A stretch of 55,960 nt of DNA, filler included, from Catajapyx aquilonaris (Eukaryota), in assembly GCA_000934665.2 (NCBI GenBank). It is 2 parts of 2 records of this genome, joined end to end, with 100 filler letters (N's around TTAATTAATTAA, not from the genome) between each part and the next. Parts side by side here need not be neighbours in the genome. Positions count along the whole stretch, not along the records: positions 1 to 27,875 come from JYFJ02004986.1; 1 more part is not named here. One strand, given 5' to 3'. The position numbers were made by a program, and so were the translations under genes. The notes beneath the pieces are model-generated. The model was not told the DNA's origin, made no database searches, and saw only the letters and a list, made by a program, of their open reading frames with translations. How positions within the stretch are numbered: the first letter of the stretch is position 1; the number at the start of each line of letters is the position of its first letter. This document shows, one piece after another, positions 5,651 through 55,229 of this stretch.

Positions 5651-5926
5651 AGCATTTCAATAAATGTATATTGTGATGCACCTACGACTTTTTTGTGAAT
5701 AAAGATAATGAGATGGAAATACCTCCTCAGTTAGCCTAAAAATGAACAACACCGGAGATTGCAACTAAAGCTGCAGATACTGCCATTTTATTTTCAATTC
5801 CATGTTACATAAAACATTGGCAAGAACTCAGATCATGACACAGAAAATGAACCTAGACGTAAGCAATAAAGTATACCGGAAACAATTCAAAAAAATATAA
5901 TATTAGGTTGACATGCCAACAACTGA

Positions 5927-24374
<18,448 letters not shown>

Positions 24375-26805
24375 ATGTCGGTCTCCAGATGGAAGAGGGC
24401 TAAAGTACTGCATCCAACCAGTCGGGATGACCTCATACGGGTAATGGCACCTTTAACTAGTCACCTCTAATACGGCACACTATAGTGCATATACTAGAAC
24501 ACTATTAGTGCATACTATAGTGAATACTTTTAGAACACAGTGTGCACTAGTGAATACTTTTAGAACACAGTGTGCACTAGTGAATACTTTTAGAACACTA
24601 TTAGATGAACTACCACTAGTAAGTACTTTTAGAACACTATTAGATGAACTACCACTAGTGAGTACTTTTAGAACACTACGGTATTAATTATAGTGCATCT
24701 ACTATAATAGTGTTCTAAAAGTACTCACTAGTGGTAGTTCATCTAATAGTGTTCTAAAAGTACTCACTATAGTGAGTTCTTTTAGAACACTATTATAGTA
24801 GATGAACTACCACTAGTGAGTACTTTTAGATCAATATTAGTGTACACAAGTAGTACTTTTATGATGCTAATTAGTGTGCACTAGTGAGAACTTTTATAAC
24901 ACAATTAGTGTGCACTAGGGAGTATTTTAAAACATTGTTAGTGGTACCAGTATTTTTACAACACAATGCACACGAGTGAGTACCTTTAGAACACCGTGAA
25001 TACCAGTAAGTATAGTACTTTTAGAACACTGCACACTAGGGAGTACTTTTAGAACACCGTGAGTACCAGTAAGTATAGTACTTTTAGAACACTGCACACT
25101 AGGGAGTACTTTTAGAACACTATGCACTTTTAGTGAGTACTTTTAGAACACTGTGCACTAGTGAATACTTTTAGAACACAATTAGTGAGAACTGTGATTT
25201 TGCAGGTGGTTGGGCAGGCCAGAGAAAATGGGACGCCGGTGTTGGTTGCTGGCGGGGAGTATCCAGCTACCAATGGGAAGAAGGATACGGTTCTGCGCAT
25301 GCGGACGCTGCGGGGGATCCTGCAGCTGGACCTGGAGGCAGGGCAGGTTAAAGTACAGGCCGGGATCACCTTGAGGGAGCTGCTTGGACACCTGGAGACG
25401 CACAGTCTGACTCTTCCGATATCGGGACAAATGCCGGACCTTACTGTGTGCGATGCACTTGCCGTTGGTACGTCGATCAGTCGTTTTATTAAAATTAAGG
25501 TCATGATTTAAGAGTAGTTGTAAGAGTTTAAAAGGCCATTTGCGTGTAAGGCAACAATAGAAAGCAAAGTTATGGCATGGTCTCAGGGTGCCTTGGTCAG
25601 GCTGGTTCCAGAGGTGTGTGGCAGCGGGAGCGGAGCAGTAGGAGACAGCTTGCTCCGAGCCGAGGTCCTCTGCGCAGATGGACGGGTGTCTGAGTGGGAC
25701 TGGGACAAACATGCTGAGGAGATGTCCGGGTTGTTAGCCGGCCTGGGGGCATTGGGAATCCTGCTTTCTGCCACACTCAAGTGCATACCATTGTTTAGGT
25801 AAGTCTACATGCGGACTACTGATGTGTAAGCCTGCCAACGAAACTTTCTACATTTGCAGAATCCGTGAGGTGAGCTTTGAGTGCCCCCTGCAGGACATTA
25901 TCCGCCACTGGCATCTCCATCTGCAGGCCAGTGATTCCCTATCTGTCACATGGTATCCACTGCTAGATCGTGTCCTTGTGTGCCAGGCGGAACCTATGCG
26001 CTTGTGCCTGGCTCAGGGGCAGCCCTTGTGGAAGGCCGTCCTGGCCTGGTTACTCCTGCAGTCTTCCCGTGCTGCCTGGTGTGCCTCCTGGTGTCTCCTC
26101 CGGCTTGCCCTGCTGCTGCCAGGCAGGGGAGGAAGTCGAGGGTCCTCCCGTTCCTCCCGAAAGCAGTTGCTTTGCCGCCTGCAGAGAGGTCACTGCGGGT
26201 GGCAGCATCGGACCATGTGCCTGCAGGCTCAGCTGCGGACCGCACACTGCTTTCGGGCTCAAACTCTGCAGCCCGTGTCCACATTCTGCCGTGGACTGCG
26301 GTGGGTCCTGCCTTCAGACTCATTCCCACAGCTTCTACGCCAACTATTACCATTCACAACCAGACATCCACACCTGTGCACTTCCCCACTTCATATATCC
26401 TTCCTGTCACATACTGCTAACAACTCTACGCAGAAGGGACTACTGTCGCCCATATCACAGGAGTCCTCCATCATGATATGGACGGATTGGTTCAGGTAAG
26501 TAAATCTGGGTAAACCTGCCCTACATGTAATCCAAACTAGTGATTGTCACACAAAATCTCTCCTCTACAGGCTGCCTCTGAAAGGCTTCAGTGCGGAGCA
26601 GGCAGAGTACGAAGCTTTGCTGCAAAGCTTAGGCGGCAGAAAAAGCTGGGTGTCCGGTCCAGTGTTTGTGTCCCCATTCCTCCTGGCGCAGATGTACCCT
26701 GGTTACCGTCGGTGGTGCAAACTTCGACGCCAACTGGATCCAACGGGACTCTTCAGATCTGCCTATGTGCGAGGGATGCTGTATGCAAACCCACCTTCCA
26801 CTTGA
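24375..26805 (+). CDS. L-gulonolactone oxidase / D-arabinono-1,4-lactone oxidase-like FAD-linked oxidase, divergent, ~461 aa
   Basis: Exons 24375-24440, 25206-25467, ~25612-25798 (acceptor uncertain), 25860-26495 and 26571-26805 give 1386 nt in frame. FAD_binding_4-type motifs HPTSRDDL, VKVQAGITLREL, VLCADG, GLGALGILLSATLKC. ALO-type C-terminus LGGRKSW...MYPGYRRWCKLRRQLDPTGLFRSAY. Confidence 0.8.
24480..25190. repeat. Intronic minisatellite (~30-40-bp units, core tagtgagtacttttagaacac) with an internal inversion
   Basis: More than a dozen copies of (g/a)tacttttagaacac. Reverse-complement copies gtgttctaaaagtactcacta at ~24710-24770. Confidence 0.9.
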
Positions 26806-27778
26806 GAGCAGCCTACAGTAGTGACCTTTTTTTCCTCTTCATCGTAGCCAAATATCACTGGGTACAAAAATGGACTCGTTAACCTGCAAGAGACTCATTC
26901 TGTGGTTGTTGAAAGATTCTTCTTAGCAATGGGGGGAAACTCTTATATTGTACATTTTTCAAATAAATCATGACAGAAATAAATACATTACCCTTTCGAG
27001 TACATATTCGGCTCGTCATACAATAATTAACACTAAATAAAACATGACTGGAATGTCATTTGGCAACAATAACATGCACCAAAATGGTCTGTTCTTACAG
27101 TATGTCATCAACAAAGGAAGACCATGCAACTTCAGATGAGATTCTTCTGGAGATTTACTGTGTAAGCTTACGTTTCTTACCATTTCATAAGCTTAATTAT
27201 GAAACACATGGTTTAGTGATATACACATTTCACAATGCGGAGTTGACAAGGTGCTTTCTGAGTGACGAGCTGATCAAAATGTGCAGGACAGTGCAGTCAA
27301 CGCCATTTCAAAAACTTTCTCCCAAGTCTCTGGAAGTGGTATGGCATATTTTGAGCAGTATTTTGCGGTGGGAATGCCCAATGAAGCAAGTCGTGTACGT
27401 GCTCGATCAAGTTATTTTTAGGTTTCGCTGCAGAGAGGAGAACAAAAGGCTCTGGTTATCAGCGAGGCAATTGGATATAGCGACGTGCACGGAGTTTCAA
27501 CATTACACAACCATCAAATTACAGTGCTTTCTGACTTCTTGCTGTAAGCTGAAGCAATACAACATGACTTGAAGTGATAGTCTACAATGAGTTTCAATAG
27601 ATTGTATCGAGAAGGTTGCAGTGGAAGTTCCTTGAGAACAAATCGCTACAGGGAGCGCTAAGTTCCATCATTGGTTGTCATTACAAGGTGCCCATTCCTC
27701 GGAAGTGTACACCTGATTAAAATTACTCGTAATTATATGGAATAACTTTTTTCATACGGAAGCACTGGAGTCTTCTCA

Positions 27779-29469: not shown

Positions 29470-32400
29470 TAAGTACAGGAAAAAAAATTTGTTTTCATGA
29501 CTTTCAAAAAGTAAAGCAGTTTTATTTTTCATAACATTAAGAGCTAGAAGCACCGAAAAACAAATCCTGCTAGATTGCCCTTATCGAGAATGATCTTAAA
29601 CAATTAATAACAAATGTGATCCAGCAAGATTTCTGAATTTTTTTAAAAGTGAATAATATTTATTTGTTAATAGCACTTCTCCTTTGTTAAATCTTCACTA
29701 TGTTGCATGTTGCATTTAAGCTAAGCTTATATGAAAAATTAAATCAAGCCATGCATCATTTTACACGAATCTATGATGTTATTGCAGAGGAAGGTCGGCA
29801 CCATTTGGACCGTTTGTCCCACCTCTCGAAACTGAAGAAGCTGACCCTGGGTCCATCACACAATTATCATTCCAGACCACCACCTCGTCCGGACATGTTT
29901 TTAACGAGGGATTGGGGCAGTCTCGAGGAGGTTCACATCTTCCGACATCCTTCTGATGTGGAGCTTCTGACAATAGTGAACAAGGTTGGGGAACAGCTCC
30001 GGAAACTCTCAGTGGGACACTTGGAGAAGACACCATCATACAGGAGCCTGGCAAATTGTCAACTCTTGGACGAGCTGCACCTCTATGAAACGAAGAAAAT
30101 GACTGATATCGGCCTGCTGGAGGGTGCAGGCTTCCTGACTAATCTGCGAAACCTTACGATTCGCAAACAAAAGCGGATTACAGCTGATGCCCTGCAGGAG
30201 TTTCTGACCCGTCAAGAAGTTGTTGGGAATCTGGAGACACTTGATATTTCTTACACTCCTGCCCTGCATGACTATCATCTGCAATTCATTACCATCTATT
30301 GCCCCAGGCTGACCCAGATCTGCCTTAGAGGATGCAGACGTATCTCTGTCAGAGGGCTTCGGAACATGGTCTTGGGTTGCCAACATCTTCAGACACTGGA
30401 CCTTGATAGGTGGCAATTGTTAAATCCTGCATTGCTTACCGATTTGAAGCCATTCCTCTCTGTTAATTTAAATTAATTGGATTAGGATGGGAAGCAGCAC
30501 CAGATGTTTAGTGTTCAAAGTTTAAAGTTGATAAGATTTGAGAGACATCCTTCATGTGAACCTGGGAATGTCACAATTTCTGCTGCAATTGGCCTTTCCC
30601 TAACATTCATGTTGTGGTGTTGGCCATTGCTCTAATATGTCATTCGTATTTCGTTGGAGTGCTGTTGCCGGCAATTATTGTATTTTATTCAGAGTTTAAT
30701 TTTTTAGTTAGTTGTGCAAATTGGAGTGTGACTTCTCAATGTTTGATTGGTTTCTGGGAGTGTCTGTTTTGTTGTGGCTCCCAGATGGGTTAAATTGCAG
30801 TACAAAAATATGTCTTGATACCACATAATAACACATGGAAGCATATTTCAAGATCTCAATAGCACCTTGTACCAAAATCTTACTGTTATATTCTCATAAA
30901 CTACCTCATCAGTTGTGATATTACTGCAAGGGTTTCAGGTTAGTTTCTTTCTTTCAGCGTTGGTATTTGTGTTTTGACCTATTTAATTTCACAAGCCATG
31001 GAGCTACATTAATGTATGCTCACATTTTTTCCTATGTTAGCATTGTTATTGTTTCTTGTTTGGCAATGACTGAAATTACTGTCAATAAAAGTCATGATAC
31101 TGTCAGAACATTAGTGTCTTGTGTACCTTGTAAAAATGAAATTGTAAATTATTGTTCTTGCAGCTGTGCTACTGTTGCATATTCTCATCTTGTTCAGGCA
31201 ATTTTAGTTATTGCATGTGGATCCATGCTGGTAGAAAGCTGCTTTTTATTCTGCCGGTTAATTTTCATATGTCACAACAAACACCCTGTGACTTCAATTG
31301 AAGTAGTTTGTTTTTGCTAGGATCTGAATACATCATTTTTTGGTCTCTCGCTGAGTAATTTAAATTCAGCATATTTGAACATAAGTTGCTGTTGGTTATG
31401 GTTCCTCATGATTAGAATTGCAATTAAATTAACATCAGTGTTGCCTACATTTTATTTGTCATGCATGGTATAAATTGAAAAATTCTATGACCAACTGTAA
31501 TAGCACAAAATTAATGGCCACTTGTCTTTTGCTACACATCATCAATAGTTTTAGTGACAATTTGTGATGTCATGGACATGCATGTTGTATGCCAATTTAT
31601 TGATGTTTTCTGCAACCTGCTCTTATGTGTGCACATAGTCCACACAAAGCGACATGAAATAAATTTTGTTACTCAATATTAATTTTGTGTCTGTATTTTT
31701 CTTATATCTATATAATATGCAGGAGAATAAGAGCTGATTTTACTTATGCACAGATTTGACCCTTTGTGCCAGGGCAAGTGCATCCCAGCTTTGTAATCAT
31801 AGCCAACCATTTAGTGTTTCTTACACTAACCTATGTCATTGCACCAATATCAATGCATCTTGTTGCTGTATGTATCATTGTTGAATGTCTTCTTTGGCCT
31901 GCGAGAAGCTGAACCAGTTACACTTACATCATGGTACATGTCGGAAGCAAATTTGCACCTCCGCACTTTATACAGTAGGCCTACACCATAATTATATGAT
32001 ACAGGGTGAGGTCGTAAGGGTGGGTAGGGAAAAACCCATTTGGATGGTTCGCAGTAGATGAGAATAGCTGCAAAAACTGAAACATATGTCACAACTATCT
32101 TTTCTGTACTGGTACTGAATTTTAGGGAGTTACACTGAAGGACGTTCCATTCTGAAAACGAGAAAGTGAGGAAAAAAGCGAACGTACAGGATAAATGATT
32201 ACAACTCAATTTAATTTCAATCCTTTATCAAACATTACAAATGATTTAACAATGTCACACAATGCTTTATATTAGACATTAAAATTACATCTCATTATTT
32301 GTCTTTCAAAAATACAGTCTCACAGTCATGCAAATAATTGCATTTTATAATTCAGCACAAATTTAAATTGAATTCAATATAACTATGTTAAAGTGCTTCA

Positions 32401-32578: not shown

Positions 32579-33350
32579 TTTTTAATATCATTTATTTACA
32601 GATTTACAGAACTATTCAGCTTACAATTTACCTCCCTTCTTATTCTAAGGGGGGGAGACACATGCGTAATATATTTGTTTAATAAACATTTTATGACGTG
32701 TTCGTATCTATCTCTGTGTTGTTGGGGATTATTCACTGGTTTTATATTCATTATAACACTCTATCTTACATTGTTCTCTCCTTGCTTAATCTAACATAAT
32801 TATTCATGTATTTGTTGTATTTAATGAGTATTTTATTGATGTTTTCTATTTCATTTATTGGAGCAATTGCTATATATTGTAGAAATTGGTTTCTAGGTGG
32901 GGGATGCCAGTTTAACTGTTTTATTATAGATTGTGTGCAATTACATTCGGAAATAATATGAAACCACGAGTTGTTTTCTAATTGATTACAAATCTGGCAT
33001 TTCTCATTTATGTCTATTGTAAGTGCTGAACCATCTGTTAATGGAATCCAGTTATTTTTATTTCTTATTGCACATATTTGTCTTTTGATGGTTATCGAAT
33101 GGTTTTTATTGAGATATGGTGCCGGTAACGGATCGAATGTTATATTGTGGTAATATCTGTATGTGTCTGATGTCTTAAGTTTATTTAGATCTTCCTGTCT
33201 TGCTTGATCAATTACTCTCCTGATTGTTAATTCTATTGCTTTTATGTCATCGGAATCTATTATTGAAGTCACCATAGACATTGACAAATCATGGTCATTT
33301 AGCATCTTCGATATCTGTGTTGCCGAGTTTTTGTTACGTTTTGGGTAATT
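32579..33350 (-). mobile_element. 5'-truncated non-LTR retrotransposon (ORF2 C-terminus with Cys/His knuckle), 19-bp TSD
   Basis: tactgtcagaaaattcatt is duplicated at 32560-32578 and 33351-33369. Uninterrupted ORF with CQICNQLENNSWFHIISEC, then a 3'UTR and short A tail. Confidence 0.85.
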
Positions 33351-33697
33351 TACTGTCAGAAAATTCATTACCTCTCCAAGTACAGAATTTCACATTATTA
33401 TGCAAAAAAAAAAAATCGGATAGATGAAATCTACACTAGATTTTACATAAATACAGTAACACGTAAAAATATCAACTTGTCCTCAAAAATGCAAAAAATA
33501 ATTCTGAACAAATCCTAATTAAAGTAAATCATGCATCATCTCAAATATATTGGTCTCACAAATGCAAAATATTCCATATGTATGCAAATTCTCCTACTAT
33601 TCGGCACAAATCAAAATCTCATTCAATCACGTCAAAAAAATTATTCACTTGCCATCAAACAATGCACAATGTCCGAAAAACACTTTGAGGGACAAAC

Positions 33698-39918: not shown

Positions 39919-42900
39919 TCACTGGATCATTTTGCGGATCATGTAGTGCAAAATTCCGCCATTCTTAAAGTAGGCCAGCTCCACTTCGGTATCAAAACGA
40001 GCCAACACATTGAAGCTGCGTCCGTCACTCACCTGAAATTGCAAAATGAAGTCATGAAGAAGCCATAGAATACATTCAAAAAATTTAATGGGGTACTAAC
40101 CTTCACTTCCAGCACCTGGCTAGGGCGAATGTCATCTGGAATGTGGATTGAAAATTTCTCATGCCCTGTCAGTCCCAATGACTCAGCTGTTTGGCCTGGA
40201 AGGTACTGAAGTGGAACTAAGCCCATTCCAATCAAGTTGGATCGGTGAATTCTTTCATAGGATTCAGCAATCACAGCTCTAATGCCCTAAGAACATAATG
40301 AGGACATTGTTATAATATGCCATAATAATGCATAATGTACATACAGTAATAATTGTTACTTACGAGTAGATATGGTCCCTTGGCAGCCCAATCTCGTGAT
40401 GATCCTGATCCATACTCCTTTCCAGCCAATACAATCACTGGCATGTTTTCCTGCTTGTACCGCTCTGCTGCATCATACACATCCATCTGTAAAGAATGGC
40501 AAATGTTGAAACCTCAACAAAATGCAGCTATCCAAAGTAATTGCACTTGGGACTATATTAACTGAGTCGAAAAGTTTGCAAGTGACACACTGAGATCATT
40601 GTTAAACTGCAAGCATCATCACTCAATACTTCTTTATTATAATAACTGTAATTCAATACCCAATAATAGGTCTACTTGGGCCTTTAGGTCACAGGGGCTC
40701 ATCTTTTTAACCCCCGACTTTATTAATTGCCTCTGCTGGATTCTGATTGTAGGAGGAAACAGGAGAACTCTCCCAAAAAACAATGAGAACATGGAGAGAC
40801 CCAACTGAAACATTTCCCTTATGTGCAATTCCCCTGTTCGATCTGGGGATTGAACATGAGACCTCAGAGGTACCACACTGTGATGATGACTATTATACCA
40901 TCATGCCATGCTAATACTGCTCTATTATTCTCCTTGATTAGCAGGGCAGTTATTGACCTTACAATTGAAAGTTGATCTTATGTTTAATCTAAGCATTCAA
41001 ACCAACTTTGGTAGCATTGGAAGTGTGACTGCCATACCTCTTCCCCTGATGGAATGTGAATTGTCTTTGCACCTGCTTTCCCAATGAACTTGTTCATCAG
41101 ACGGATGTTGGCAAATGTTCCTCTTGCCATCACATCATCATTCCCACGGCGTGATCCATATGAATTGAATTCTCTTGGAGTCAGGCTACAATTAAATTTG
41201 TTTTCGATACCTTCACAGTAAGGAGATGACCTTGCAAAGCAATGACCCAATGGAACCCAGGTCAAAGTCCAAGTAATAATTTGGAATCAAACTACACTTT
41301 TTCATGGAATTGACATCATAAATTTACAACCTACTGCTGTGATGACCCTTTAGGCTTATAATGTCAAGTACAAGGAATCACCACTCAATTGAGTTTTGGT
41401 GCAGAAAACTTTCTTATATAACCACACAATGTTTACACCCTGCTGGACTTTGACTATTGTTCAATTGGACCATTTAATAAAATGATACATACCCTCGAGC
41501 ACCAAGATACCGAGCAGCAGCACTATTGCGAGCTATGCTTCCAGCAGGAGAAATATGGTCAGTGGTCACTGAATCACCCAGGTTCAGTAAAGCATGAGCA
41601 TCAACAATTGCCTCAAACTTGGGAAGATCCTGAAAGCATTGTGGTTAAAATACAGTATTACTTTGATGCAAGGTGTAGGCAGATAATGAAGGCTACACCA
41701 TCACCACTCCAAAAACTATGGAGCAGTGTCATAAGGACCTACACTCAATTTCAAAAGGAACAAAACCAAAACAATTAACCTCATTCACCCTAAGTGGGTG
41801 GGTGTAGAGTGTATTGATTTATCTCATTATTGCCGAAAAGCTTAAAATGTACCATCACAAAGCAAGAAGATGGAGATGACTGGTCACAGACTGACCAAGA
41901 GTTCTCTGGAATTTCTTAGACATAATTATGGGAGCTTACTACTGCATACTGCTATGTACTATATCGCTCAAAAACATATGAGACGATTTTGCGTTTGATT
42001 CAAGTGCAGGCTGCACATGAGTCAAATGCAAAATCGTCTCATATGTTTTTGAGCGATATAGTACATTCTTACCTTAGTCATGGTTTCAAAGAATGGTGGA
42101 CGTTTAATATAAGTTGACCGACTGTCCCATGGATAGAGGCTGCCATCTGGAGCCTCCAGCTTATTCCAGGTGGAATTGCCATCTTGGAGCTTGGAGTACA
42201 CTTCGTTGAACATTGCTGGCAGAACATACTTGTGCTCTACTTCTTGAATCTCATTTCGTAATGGCCACACATCACGCAAGAAGATTGGCTTATTGTTTGA
42301 ATCGTACCCTATTTTGATAAAAAACCATGTATAAAATTTTTTAACATTCATAACATACGAGTAGATATTGCTTACCCAAGGGATCAACTTCAAAGTCAAT
42401 AGCCATAGTGCCAGCAATTGCATATGCAATGACTAAGAGAGGAGATGCAAGGTAGTTTGCACGAGTGTTGGGATGAACTCGGCCTTCAAAGTTGCGGTTG
42501 CCAGAGAGAATGCCACAGCATACAAGATCACCCTGTAACAGAAAATGCAAGCCTCATGCACTTCTCTTGGGAGACATTACACATACCTTATCAATAGCCT
42601 CCACTACAGGATCAGGAAGTGGCCCACTGTTTCCAATGCATGTCATGCATCCATAACCAACAATGCCAAAACCCAATTTCTCCAGGTAAGGAATGACACC
42701 ACTTTCCTGGAGGTAGTAAGTAACCACTCCAGATCCAGGTGAAAGACTTGTCTTGATTGCAGGGGACACTGACAGTCCTGCCTCCACTGCCTTCTTAGCC
42801 AACAAACCTAAAAATACATCAGTGTATACCTAATTGAAGCTGTCTCTGTTGCTGTAGGAAGTCATGTTGTAGGTATGCCATGTACCTGCACCAAGCATGA

Positions 42901-53580: not shown

Positions 53581-54346
53581 GTAAGTTTACTTTTTTGCTG
53601 ATATACGGTAGTTTTAAAAATTGCTTATCTTTTTAATAAACATCGGTTCACTAGCCTAGTCACACAAGACAAAGGTGCAATTTTTTGTCATCTTTTGCTT
53701 CGTTGCACTCGTAAAGTTCGGGATTATGATGAATTAAAATTACTGATATACGATCAGGTTTAATGTCAACGTTATATATTGCAACAACCAATGTACTGTA
53801 AGAGAGCCAGTTTTCTTGCATAGGAATTCTAGGCAGCACAATATAATTCCATTTTAAATAACGCAAGAGCGCGCAAGAGTTACCGTACCTATTGTTGAAT
53901 CACGCGCTAATAGTTCGACCAGGCAAAACTGCTCCATAATAATTACATTAATTTAACCCAATATCTAGCATTTAATAGTAATTTTAGCAAATTAAATGAA
54001 TTTAAACTTCTGTTTATGTTATTAAAACGTTTACCATTTTAATTGGATGTTGGCAACTCTGATAAGTTGAAGAGGCAATGGCCGCCTGGTAGCTGGCATG
54101 TGCAGGACACCGCCTCTGATTATCTGGTGTACCATCACGAACCCAAGTGAATTTTTACGTGCTTACCAGGTGGGCCTCATGTCCAACATTTTGCCCAGAA
54201 TTTGTCTGGAGGGTACCATGAGAGGTGCTCTGGTTGCTCTGGGAAGGACTAGGTTTCCCTGTACTTATGAGACATGATTTTTGAAAGAAGCATGAATGCC
54301 GAATTATCTAAAAGTACTTTAATTTTGCAGCTGTCTACCAACCAAA

Positions 54347-55229
54347 ATGTCAGAACGGATTAAGAAAGTGGGGACGCGTTCAAGACAACTGGACTTTCGC
54401 AACATTGAGTGGGACATGATGGACAAGAGGCTTTTTTATCCTATGAGTATGCTCAGCACATTCACAGTGAGGTGCTTTCTTTACCCGTTTACCGTTGTAA
54501 AGACTCGCCTTCAGATCCAGCACCAGAGTGAAGTGTACAGAGGAACCTTTGATGCCTACAAGAAGATCCTCAGGGACGAAGGTGTGCGGGGCCTGTATCG
54601 GGGGTTTTGGGTCAGCGCGTTCCAAATAGTGTCCAGCGTCTTTTATATCACGACATATGAGAATGTACGTCAATTCCTTCGAGATCGAGAAGTGGGTAAC
54701 AATGAATTTCAAGCGCTGATTGGTGGGGCATGTGCTTCTGTGGTTGGTCAGACTACCATTGTGCCCTTCGATGTGATTAGCCAGCATGTGATGGTATTAG
54801 GCCAGGCTAACAGGAACTCCAAAAATGTGAATGCCACTGTGGTTAACCCATTAAAAGTCCGCTACCAGGGTCGCAGTAGTGCTGAAATCACCAGGGAGAT
54901 AATACGTGCCATTCATCGTCAGGATGGACTACGAGGATTTTACCGAGGTTACTTCACCTCTTTGGGTACATATGTGCCAAATAGTGCTCTATGGTGGGCC
55001 TTCTACCACTTCTATCAAGGTAATGCACTGACTGGGAGTTATGCTCTTCGGTATGTTGCCATACCCCTAATTGCATTGAAACGTGTCATTTTCAATTTCA
55101 GACCAGCTGTACAAAGTTACGCCTATGGGGACATCACATCTGTTGGTACAGTGCACTTCCGCCACCTTAGGAGGAGCAACTGCTGCCTTGATTACCAACC
55201 CATTGGACATTGTTCGTGCTAGGTTGCAG
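54347..55229 (+). CDS. SLC25A44: Mitochondrial carrier SLC25A44-like (5' part; continues beyond the window)
   Basis: Exons 54347-55019 and 55102-55229. IEWDMMDK..FYPMSMLSTFTVRCFLYPFTVVKTRLQIQ, VPFDVISQH, YVPNSALWWAFY and TNPLDIVRARLQ are carrier repeats typical of SLC25A44. Confidence 0.92.

Follow-up and report, generated by a model that had tools for sequence, protein, structure and literature searches.

An intact, transcribed GULO/ALO-like gene of Catajapyx aquilonaris belongs to a conserved pancrustacean family with replaced catalytic residues and probably encodes a pseudoenzyme

The window analysed in this work, a stretch of 55,960 nucleotides (nt) from Catajapyx aquilonaris (assembly GCA_000934665.2), harbours a GULO/ALO-like gene of five exons at positions 24375-26805 of the plus strand, with an ATG at 24375 and a TGA at 26803-26805. 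In the reading that we favour, the gene is intact, transcribed and spliced and belongs to a conserved pancrustacean family descended from a GULO/ALO-type aldonolactone oxidoreductase, and its product is a probable pseudoenzyme. That it is a real, constrained member of this family in which the GULO sites are dead can be said with high confidence. As far as the available parts of the papers go, GULO is described as not present in Pancrustacea (PMC6582580), as missing from Insecta (PMC9233358) and from all insects and Daphnia (PMC4396506), and as lost before crustaceans split from insects (PMC11377030). The initial annotation had suspected that motif-based surveys would miss a gene of this kind, and this agrees with the available part of PMC6582580, where nothing was annotated without an HWXK-coding exon and only HWXK-bearing sequences entered the phylogeny. 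A literature search found no paper on an arthropod GULO-like family; it did not extend to survey supplements, which could list excluded pancrustacean sequences.

The signature sites were compared in an alignment of the window protein with P0067, a canonical bacterial relative that reads GASHS, GTHG, EVR and HWGK, and with 12 family members. At the site of the canonical G-x-G-H-S loop the window protein has GGEYP (25251-25265, amino acids 38-42), which stands opposite GASHS of P0067, with Tyr in place of the covalent-flavin His and Pro in place of Ser, and EVCG stands opposite GTHG. The strand that bears Glu-x-Arg in canonical enzymes reads PLHISF (26386-26403, amino acids 348-353), that is H-I-S or S-H-T according to the register, with no Glu or Arg in either. 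At the site of GGRPHWAK, GGRKSWVS (26632-26655, amino acids 405-412) is aligned with GRPHWGK of P0067; the Trp of HWxK is kept, its His and Lys are lost. The alignment with P0067 and the relatives thus upholds the four readings made earlier from the sequence (GGEYP, EVC, HIS and GGRKSWVS). Neither HWXK (the protein reads SWVS), nor the N-terminal flavin motif X[GR]X[GS][HLK][SG] (it reads AGGEYP), nor the Glu-x-Arg of the cap domain was found in the window protein.

The relatives are altered at the same sites. Their flavin loop is GG[STA][FY]P, with the Pro invariant, and the former HWxK site reads [CA]W[SY]x. HW.K, G.[GS]HS and G[TS]HG occur in 0 of 20 sequences (the window protein and 19 relatives), and the strand following HP..C..P contains E.R in no family member. 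In all members D-A replaces the G-G of the second loop and the H-G loop is gone; GLG..G[IV][IV] of the third loop is kept. Three loops of the VAO fold contact the flavin, and since two of them are changed in all members, flavin binding by the family is doubtful. The ancestral reaction appears to be lost, because the window gene and the 19 relatives alike carry other residues at the signature sites.

The weight of these replacements can be judged from characterised enzymes, within the portions of the papers that were accessible. In GULO and ALO, FAD is bound covalently through the first His, a position taken by Leu or Lys in the non-covalent enzymes (PMC9602106, Table 1), and HWXK and the Glu-Arg pair are conserved across all aldonolactone oxidoreductases (PMC9602106; PMC6582580). 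In the HWXK motif of T. cruzi GALO, flavin binding and activity are abolished when either the His or the Trp is changed to Gly, and activity also depends on the Lys (PMC11505616). Judged by its residues, the window protein is very probably not an aldonolactone oxidase.

The spliced frame of the gene comprises 1386 nt, or 461 codons, and is not interrupted by any stop; 9 and 11 stops occur in the two remaining sense frames, and 13, 7 and 18 in the antisense ones. Shuffling within each exon gave 16.05 stops on average and an open frame in 0 of 20,000 shuffles, a test in which codons ~206-357 in the middle of exon 4 carry no weight, all three sense frames being open there. The intact frame of about 461 amino acids that had been proposed is therefore confirmed. 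All four introns are of the GT..AG type (765, 144, 61 and 75 nt), and the GC content is 0.53-0.60 in exons against 0.34-0.44 in introns. Exon 1 (24375-24440) contains the start codon and encodes amino acids 1-22, an N-terminus that aligns with those of the relatives. It is separated by intron 1 (24441-25205, GC 0.34) from exon 2 (25206-25467), which encodes amino acids 23-109 and the first base of codon 110 and forms the core of the FAD-binding domain. After intron 2 (25468-25611, GTACGT..TTCCAG, phase 1), whose splice sites were placed by frame and homology, exon 3 (25612-25798) takes up the remainder of codon 110, continues through the first two bases of codon 172 and ends the FAD-binding domain; it carries EVCGSGSG at the GTHG region and the GLGALGILLSATLKCIPL strand. 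Intron 3 (25799-25859, phase 2) precedes exon 4 (25860-26495, codons 172-384), which encodes a highly divergent cap (substrate) domain, and intron 4 (26496-26570, phase 2) precedes exon 5 (26571-26805, codons 385-461 and the stop), the C-terminal end of the ALO domain.

The Pfam scan of the gene was run on four exon pieces. Exon 2 matches FAD_binding_4 (PF01565) with E 4.9e-11 and 42.9 bits (cut-off 26.4). The match of exon 5 to ALO (PF04030), with E 8.6e-7 and 29.3 bits (cut-off 23.1), covers only profile positions 202-256 of 258; exon 3 gave no Pfam match as a piece. A FAD-binding fold followed by an ALO C-terminus, as first read from the sequence, is hence supported by both profiles. A C-terminal domain of the lactate/glycolate type (FAD-oxidase_C) was not found by Pfam in the window pieces or in the family members. 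The central hydrophobic segment described in the initial annotation is present at amino acids 228-260, but it is amphipathic, with no 19-residue window above 1.4 on the Kyte-Doolittle scale.

Intron 1 consists nearly entirely of tandem repeats at 24477-25179, with periods of 21-63 nt and the core AGTACTTTTAGAACAC, and contains inverted repeats as well; to the eye, the sequence at ~24700-24800 resembles the reverse complement. The array may be a satellite or a foldback element.

Expression was followed in X1, a public run of unrecorded type, available as contigs, which was the only run found to contain the stretch; no run recorded as RNA contains it. One X1 contig joins 13862 to 23775 and lacks the 9.9-kb GT..AG intron of the neighbouring COPA gene, from which it follows that X1 is RNA-derived. 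Record 2 of X1 starts at 24339, which gives a minimal 5' untranslated stretch on the plus strand (24339-24374), runs into exon 1 and joins 24440 to 25206, intron 1 being removed. In record 4, 26495 is joined to 26571 without intron 4, and the last 15 letters of exon 3 precede exon 4 without intron 3. The gene is thus not unexpressed, introns 1, 3 and 4 being spliced out in X1 contigs. The joint of exons 2 and 3 was not seen among the X1 contigs, none of which spans it (25440-25501 have no X1 cover), and the exon-3 acceptor, for which RNA confirmation had been suggested, rests on homology.

This acceptor was placed at 25612 because it pairs in frame with the best donor (GGTACGT, split after its first G, at 25467), gives a gap-free alignment with the relatives, and corresponds to an intron at the same codon and phase in L014, a distant, copepod-like locus of the family. 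Several donor and acceptor pairs for intron 2 leave the frame open. The acceptor 25587, which looks strong, was tried as well: with the best donor at 25467 it shifts the frame into a stop at 25693 and was rejected on homology and on the shared intron phase, and with a weaker donor at 25463 it adds 7 residues absent from all relatives and was likewise rejected. At 25513, inside intron 2, the X1 contig is 3 letters shorter than the window, an allele or assembly difference.

The family was delimited with phmmer: exon 2, compared exhaustively with 1.84 billion representatives, gave 18 matches at E<=0.001 (best 2.2e-9, identity 34-46%); FAD_binding_4 was present in 16 of these and ALO in nine, and several full-length matches carry the odd motifs of the window protein. 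A profile of 8 members recovered 20 proteins at E<=1e-5, of which 16 were strong (E<=4.9e-95) and the other four were weak matches to unrelated FAD_binding_4 proteins. Members were found in Orthoptera (Gryllus longicercus, Anabrus simplex, Schistocerca piceifrons), in Phasmatodea (Bacillus rossius), in Blattodea including termites (Periplaneta, Blattella, Diploptera, Cryptotermes, Coptotermes, Zootermopsis), in the copepod Lepeophtheirus salmonis, and among transcript or metagenome contigs. Family proteins in the word-index collection are 446-467 amino acids long; word-index homologue searches with exons 4 and 5 returned nothing, which are false negatives, since family proteins are present in that same collection.

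When the window protein was compared with 18 full-length relatives from end to end, and with one fragment over the shared part, the identity was 26.7-36.3%. Exon 4 aligns in frame with termite-like genomic loci (E ~1e-21) and keeps CRGLRWVLP, HPHLC..P and IWTDWF, exon 5 is 57-62% identical to such loci over 63-74 amino acids, and exon 3 has tblastn matches to L014 and L016. The features of the family, namely GG.[FY]P, D-A-x-x-[VI]-G, CRG..W.LP, W.DWF, the kept Trp and the MYPGY..W tail, are all present in the window protein. The same motif replacements, invariant residues and length are seen in the entries XP_063224618.1 (Bacillus rossius, 'L-gulonolactone oxidase-like') and XP_040578787.1 (Lepeophtheirus salmonis), and in KAK7866353.1 (Gryllus longicercus) and GFG33098.1 (Coptotermes formosanus), both named 'hypothetical'; the entries of Anabrus, Cryptotermes, Schistocerca and Periplaneta agree with the window protein in all three respects. 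The window protein differs from the family entries by a 27-residue Arg/Ser/Gly-rich insertion (26122-26202, amino acids 260-286; a gap in all 19 relatives), by Ser for Cys before the kept Trp, and by Glu at an invariant Gly. The same altered form is kept across insects and copepods, and because the replaced sites are common to both, they are old and were subsequently conserved.

The termite-like copies are intronless, in contrast to the four introns of the window gene: in L001-L007, the termite-like genomic copies, the whole coding sequence is uninterrupted, and the window gene shares intron positions with the copepod-like L013-L016. This would point to intron loss or retroposition in the cockroach and termite line. 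Two predicted proteins, P0057 of Zootermopsis (853 amino acids) and P0058 of Blattella (808 amino acids), have GULO-like domains joined to Pfam accessions that we take to be C2H2-type zinc fingers; they are probably merged gene models and not true fusions. The copepod-type transcript-like contigs L010 and L011 are close kin with frames of 243 and 553 codons, respectively, L010 carrying a frame break or an error.

By sequence, the family is nearest to the GULO/ALO type and has the build of an aldonolactone oxidoreductase. Among NCBIfam models, TIGR01678 (sugar 1,4-lactone oxidase) scored best for all 8 relatives, with 50.8-118.7 bits, ahead of the bacterial model (36.8-51.5 bits) and of the plant, GLDH, DprE1 and GlcD models; in the affiliation test the GlcD/GlcE models reached at most 21.6 bits. 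The curated cut-off, tested for TIGR01678, TIGR01676, TIGR01677 and TIGR01679, is missed by these scores (396.8 bits for TIGR01678), and exon 2 and exon 5 of the window gene score 21.7 and 22.8 bits. The relatives match the whole ALO domain. For P0054, a Cryptotermes member, the AlphaFold model (predicted local distance difference test, pLDDT, 85.8; predicted template-modelling score, pTM, 0.86) displays the two-domain VAO fold with a FAD-binding and a cap domain, and in Foldseek its best match was GLDH 8qmy (E 1.2e-24, template-modelling score 0.69), followed by DprE1 and alditol oxidase. The model has helices at 244-270 and 272-291 with a turn between them, and the insertion of the window protein would fall at this turn. 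An Atlas search with P0054 returned only bacterial FAD_binding_4/ALO clusters, and one with exon 4 was uninformative (recognition 1210, best score 0.77). In phmmer searches of the PDB, exon 2 had 0 matches at E<=0.01 and exon 5 only weak ones (xylitol oxidase and DprE1, E 0.06).

The initial annotation had allowed for a place in another VAO clade, such as DHCR24 or D-lactate dehydrogenase; D-2-hydroxyglutarate dehydrogenase, DprE1 and alditol oxidase were considered as well. DprE1 and alditol oxidase do occur among the weaker sequence and fold matches; however, the ALO domain is present, the lactate/glycolate-type C-terminal domain was not found in the window pieces or the members, TIGR01678 leads over DprE1, GlcD and all other models in each of the eight relatives, and GLDH heads both the PDB and the fold searches. 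The gene was thus not found to group with such a clade, an origin to which we give next to no probability.

A working enzyme for the last step of vitamin C synthesis, with GULO/ALO activity despite its unorthodox residues, would agree with TIGR01678 as the best model and with the name 'L-gulonolactone oxidase(-like)', which NCBI assigns automatically to several family members. Locusts need dietary ascorbate, and the locust Schistocerca carries the gene nonetheless. The scores lie far under the TIGR01678 cut-off, and each of the 20 sequences has lost all four signature sites. Some insects without a known GULO make ascorbate, according to the available parts of PMC9233358 and PMC11377030, which speaks for such an activity, but a search that depends on shared words recovered no family member from Drosophila or Bombyx, for which ascorbate synthesis is discussed. 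Together with the loss of flavin and activity in the T. cruzi GALO HWXK mutants (PMC11505616, as far as available), these points make a working GULO very improbable.

The window gene is under constraint by several measures. Of the family-invariant columns, 32 of 36 are kept by the window protein, the misses being L>M, E>Q, G>E and W>F. A maximum-likelihood tree of 19 rows, whose one canonical full-length protein, the bacterial outgroup P0067, sits on a branch so long (5.3) that the root is unsure, places the window protein in a lineage of its own next to a copepod-type clade (support 99/100) and a polyneopteran clade (97/96). The end branch of the window protein is 0.87, compared with 1.01-1.26 in the other lone members. 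Introns 2, 3 and 4 are identical in codon and phase to those of L014, and the tblastn alignments break at intron 3 in L013 and L016 and at intron 4 in L015 and L016. The ratio of non-synonymous to synonymous substitution rates (dN/dS), calculated pairwise among eight family loci other than the window copy (28 pairs), was 0.12-0.37 in all 14 informative termite-like pairs; of the remaining pairs, one was identical, 12 were saturated and one, which involves a truncated frame, gave 0.56. The termite-like loci are hence not evolving neutrally. Synteny gave no match between the window open reading frames (ORFs) of at least 50 amino acids (COPA, the leucine-rich-repeat gene and the rest) and any of the 16 family loci, whose contigs are short.

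A decaying unitary GULO pseudogene, transcribed as a by-product of a bidirectional COPA promoter, was considered against these data. It could be read from exon 4, which Pfam, NCBIfam and Atlas do not recognise, from the middle of this exon being open in all three sense frames, from a contig that retains intron 2, and from the COPA start lying 520 bp away, head to head. We regard it as barely tenable: none of the 20,000 shuffles was open, nearly all invariant residues are kept, the residual similarity lies in one frame across all exons, three intron positions are kept together with their phases, the branch length is ordinary, and the supposed lesions are common to copepods and insects, hence old and then conserved. 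The open frame, the 32 kept residues, the branch length and the RNA splicing identify a retained gene that is not neutral.

In the window gene and the 19 relatives, each residue defining the ascorbate reaction is replaced: Tyr or Phe stands for the flavin His, and no GTHG loop, Glu-Arg pair or HWxK His and Lys is left. Invariants of the family's own are found instead: the Pro of GG.[FY]P, the D-A in the flavin loop, several Trp, CRG..W.LP and W.DWF. In the mechanism that we propose for the family, flavin binding would be weakened or lost. Such a protein would not oxidise L-gulono-, L-galactono- or D-arabinono-1,4-lactone, and no vitamin C would be made by it. The VAO-fold protein may have been kept for a binding or scaffolding role that was already present in the ancestor beside catalysis. 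A pseudoenzyme with such a role is a hypothesis to which we incline with slightly better than even confidence. What the initial annotation had put forward, a retained homologue of GULO/ALO that is either re-wired or non-catalytic, is in any case supported by the domains, the constraint and the replaced signature residues.

The re-wired form of this proposal, an enzyme that is flavin-dependent or not and has built a new active site for another substrate from the family invariants, is the main rival and is unlikely in our view. In its favour, the invariants cluster at the former active-site motifs (the Tyr/Phe-Pro loop, Asp-Ala and the Trp cluster, often with a Cys preceding the kept Trp), the FAD-binding domain is recognisable, selection is purifying and the fold is kept. 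Yet the Cys before the Trp is not invariant, being Ser in the window protein and Ala in Lepeophtheirus, every member is altered in two of the three loops that contact the flavin, and neither a substrate candidate nor a neighbouring pathway gene was found, the adjoining genes being COPA and a leucine-rich-repeat gene. A farther-reaching version, in which the ancestral pancrustacean GULO was converted before the copepod-insect split and the rebuilt pocket still acts, with or without flavin, on sugar lactones or related metabolites and might feed an unrecognised ascorbate route, is doubtful, and we give it little credence.

Several results weigh against the probable pseudoenzyme of the conserved pancrustacean family. 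The FAD_binding_4 domain of the relatives is still recognised by Pfam with E 1e-8 to 1e-15, and the family profile finds GLDH among PDB sequences at 1.1e-41, almost only through the FAD-binding half, a score that may be raised by one canonical bacterial protein among the 17 rows of the profile. A flavoprotein that performs new chemistry is therefore conceivable. Loss of the covalent His alone is not lethal to an enzyme, because GLDH with Leu at that site works with non-covalent FAD, as stated in the accessible parts of PMC11505616 and PMC9602106 (Table 1). Exon 4 has no Pfam or NCBIfam family match, with Sushi_2 below threshold as the sole hit. Record 3 of X1, a low-depth contig, is unspliced over 25502-25797 (the last 110 nt of intron 2 and exon 3); an intron-2-retaining form therefore exists, and it would stop at 25509-25511. 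The window protein is also the most divergent member, keeping 80% of the columns conserved at 90% compared with 84-100% in the others, and the invariant Gly that is replaced by Glu lies at the joint of exons 2 and 3. The dN/dS values describe the other family loci and not the window copy. Descent from the ancestral animal GULO, and not from an older paralogue, is an inference, and the word non-catalytic is drawn from residues alone.

Comparison with known systems helps to place the family. Animal GULO and fungal ALO (TIGR01678; PF01565 and PF04030) are like the window family in domain order and in their length of ~440-460 amino acids; the relatives are collinear with TIGR01678 over profile positions ~15-436 of 438, and the C-terminal tail MYP..W....LDP...F.S.Y is common to both. 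The window family differs in its replaced residues (covalent-flavin His, GTHG loop, Glu-Arg pair, and His and Lys of HWAK) and in a cap domain that is barely recognisable. Plant GLDH (PDB 8qmy, 8qnc, 7sml and 7a24 chain z) is the best solved match by profile and by fold and, like the family, is without the covalent His. It is also an assembly factor of respiratory complex I, and in the multi-chain PDB entry 7a24 it forms chain z; this structural role may serve, by analogy, as a precedent for a non-catalytic job of the window family. Unlike the family, GLDH is enzymatically active and retains HWAK, E-x-R and the HG loop (PMC9602106, Table 1).

The HWXK mutants of T. cruzi GALO indicate the likely effect of the natural changes in the window protein, to the extent covered by the accessible text of PMC11505616; they are laboratory point mutants of an active enzyme, whereas the window protein keeps the Trp and belongs to a natural family. 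A DHCR24-type protein of Bombyx mori with 'GULO-like activity', discussed as an insect stand-in for GULO in the available parts of PMC11377030 and PMC9602106, is also of the VAO superfamily, but it falls into a different clade, has no ALO domain and is unrelated to the window family. The lineage GL1, which contains the B. mori gene, is given there as confined to Lepidoptera and Paraneoptera.

Upstream, the gene stands head to head with COPA (coatomer-alpha; 5900-23857, minus strand), the start codons being 520 bp apart. COPA has its ATG at 23854, its exon 1 at 23775-23857 and an exon 2 ending at 13862, and a downstream COPA ORF matches Pfam B-prop_COPA_B_2nd with E 5e-51. The region shared by the two genes between the COPA ATG and the start of the X1 contig (23855-24338) is probably a bidirectional promoter. 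On the other side, the X1 contig with exons 4 and 5 continues unbroken for ~1 kb past the stop codon, from 26806 to at least 27500 (~27809 by its length), which could be due to a long 3' untranslated region, to read-through or to overlapping transcripts merged by the assembler. Within this stretch lies an ORF of 174 codons (27048-27572, plus strand) without a Pfam match; it may be the first exon of the downstream gene, whose leucine-rich-repeat ORF is at 29691-30476 on the plus strand. Farther along the window, two minus-strand ORFs had no Pfam match, one of 207 codons at 32766-33389 and one at 42022-42432 that presumably resembles cytosolic aconitase/IRP1, and a plus-strand ORF at 54323-55222 belongs to a mitochondrial carrier gene (Mito_carr, E 1.7e-34).

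The family sequences were already public under automatic names, and the window gene adds to them a third, intron-bearing lineage and evidence from RNA that it is spliced. Together they show that in at least three pancrustacean lineages a gene of the GULO/ALO type has persisted for hundreds of millions of years past the replacement of its catalytic residues. The name 'L-gulonolactone oxidase' given to the proteins of termites, locusts, katydids and the salmon louse is misleading, and could pass for evidence of vitamin C synthesis. RNA interference and genome editing are established in crickets and cockroaches, in which the family would be tractable as a natural, conserved VAO-fold pseudoenzyme or re-wired enzyme. 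The pancrustacean 'loss' of GULO may in this light be a change of function, and the question becomes what a dead aldonolactone oxidase is kept for.

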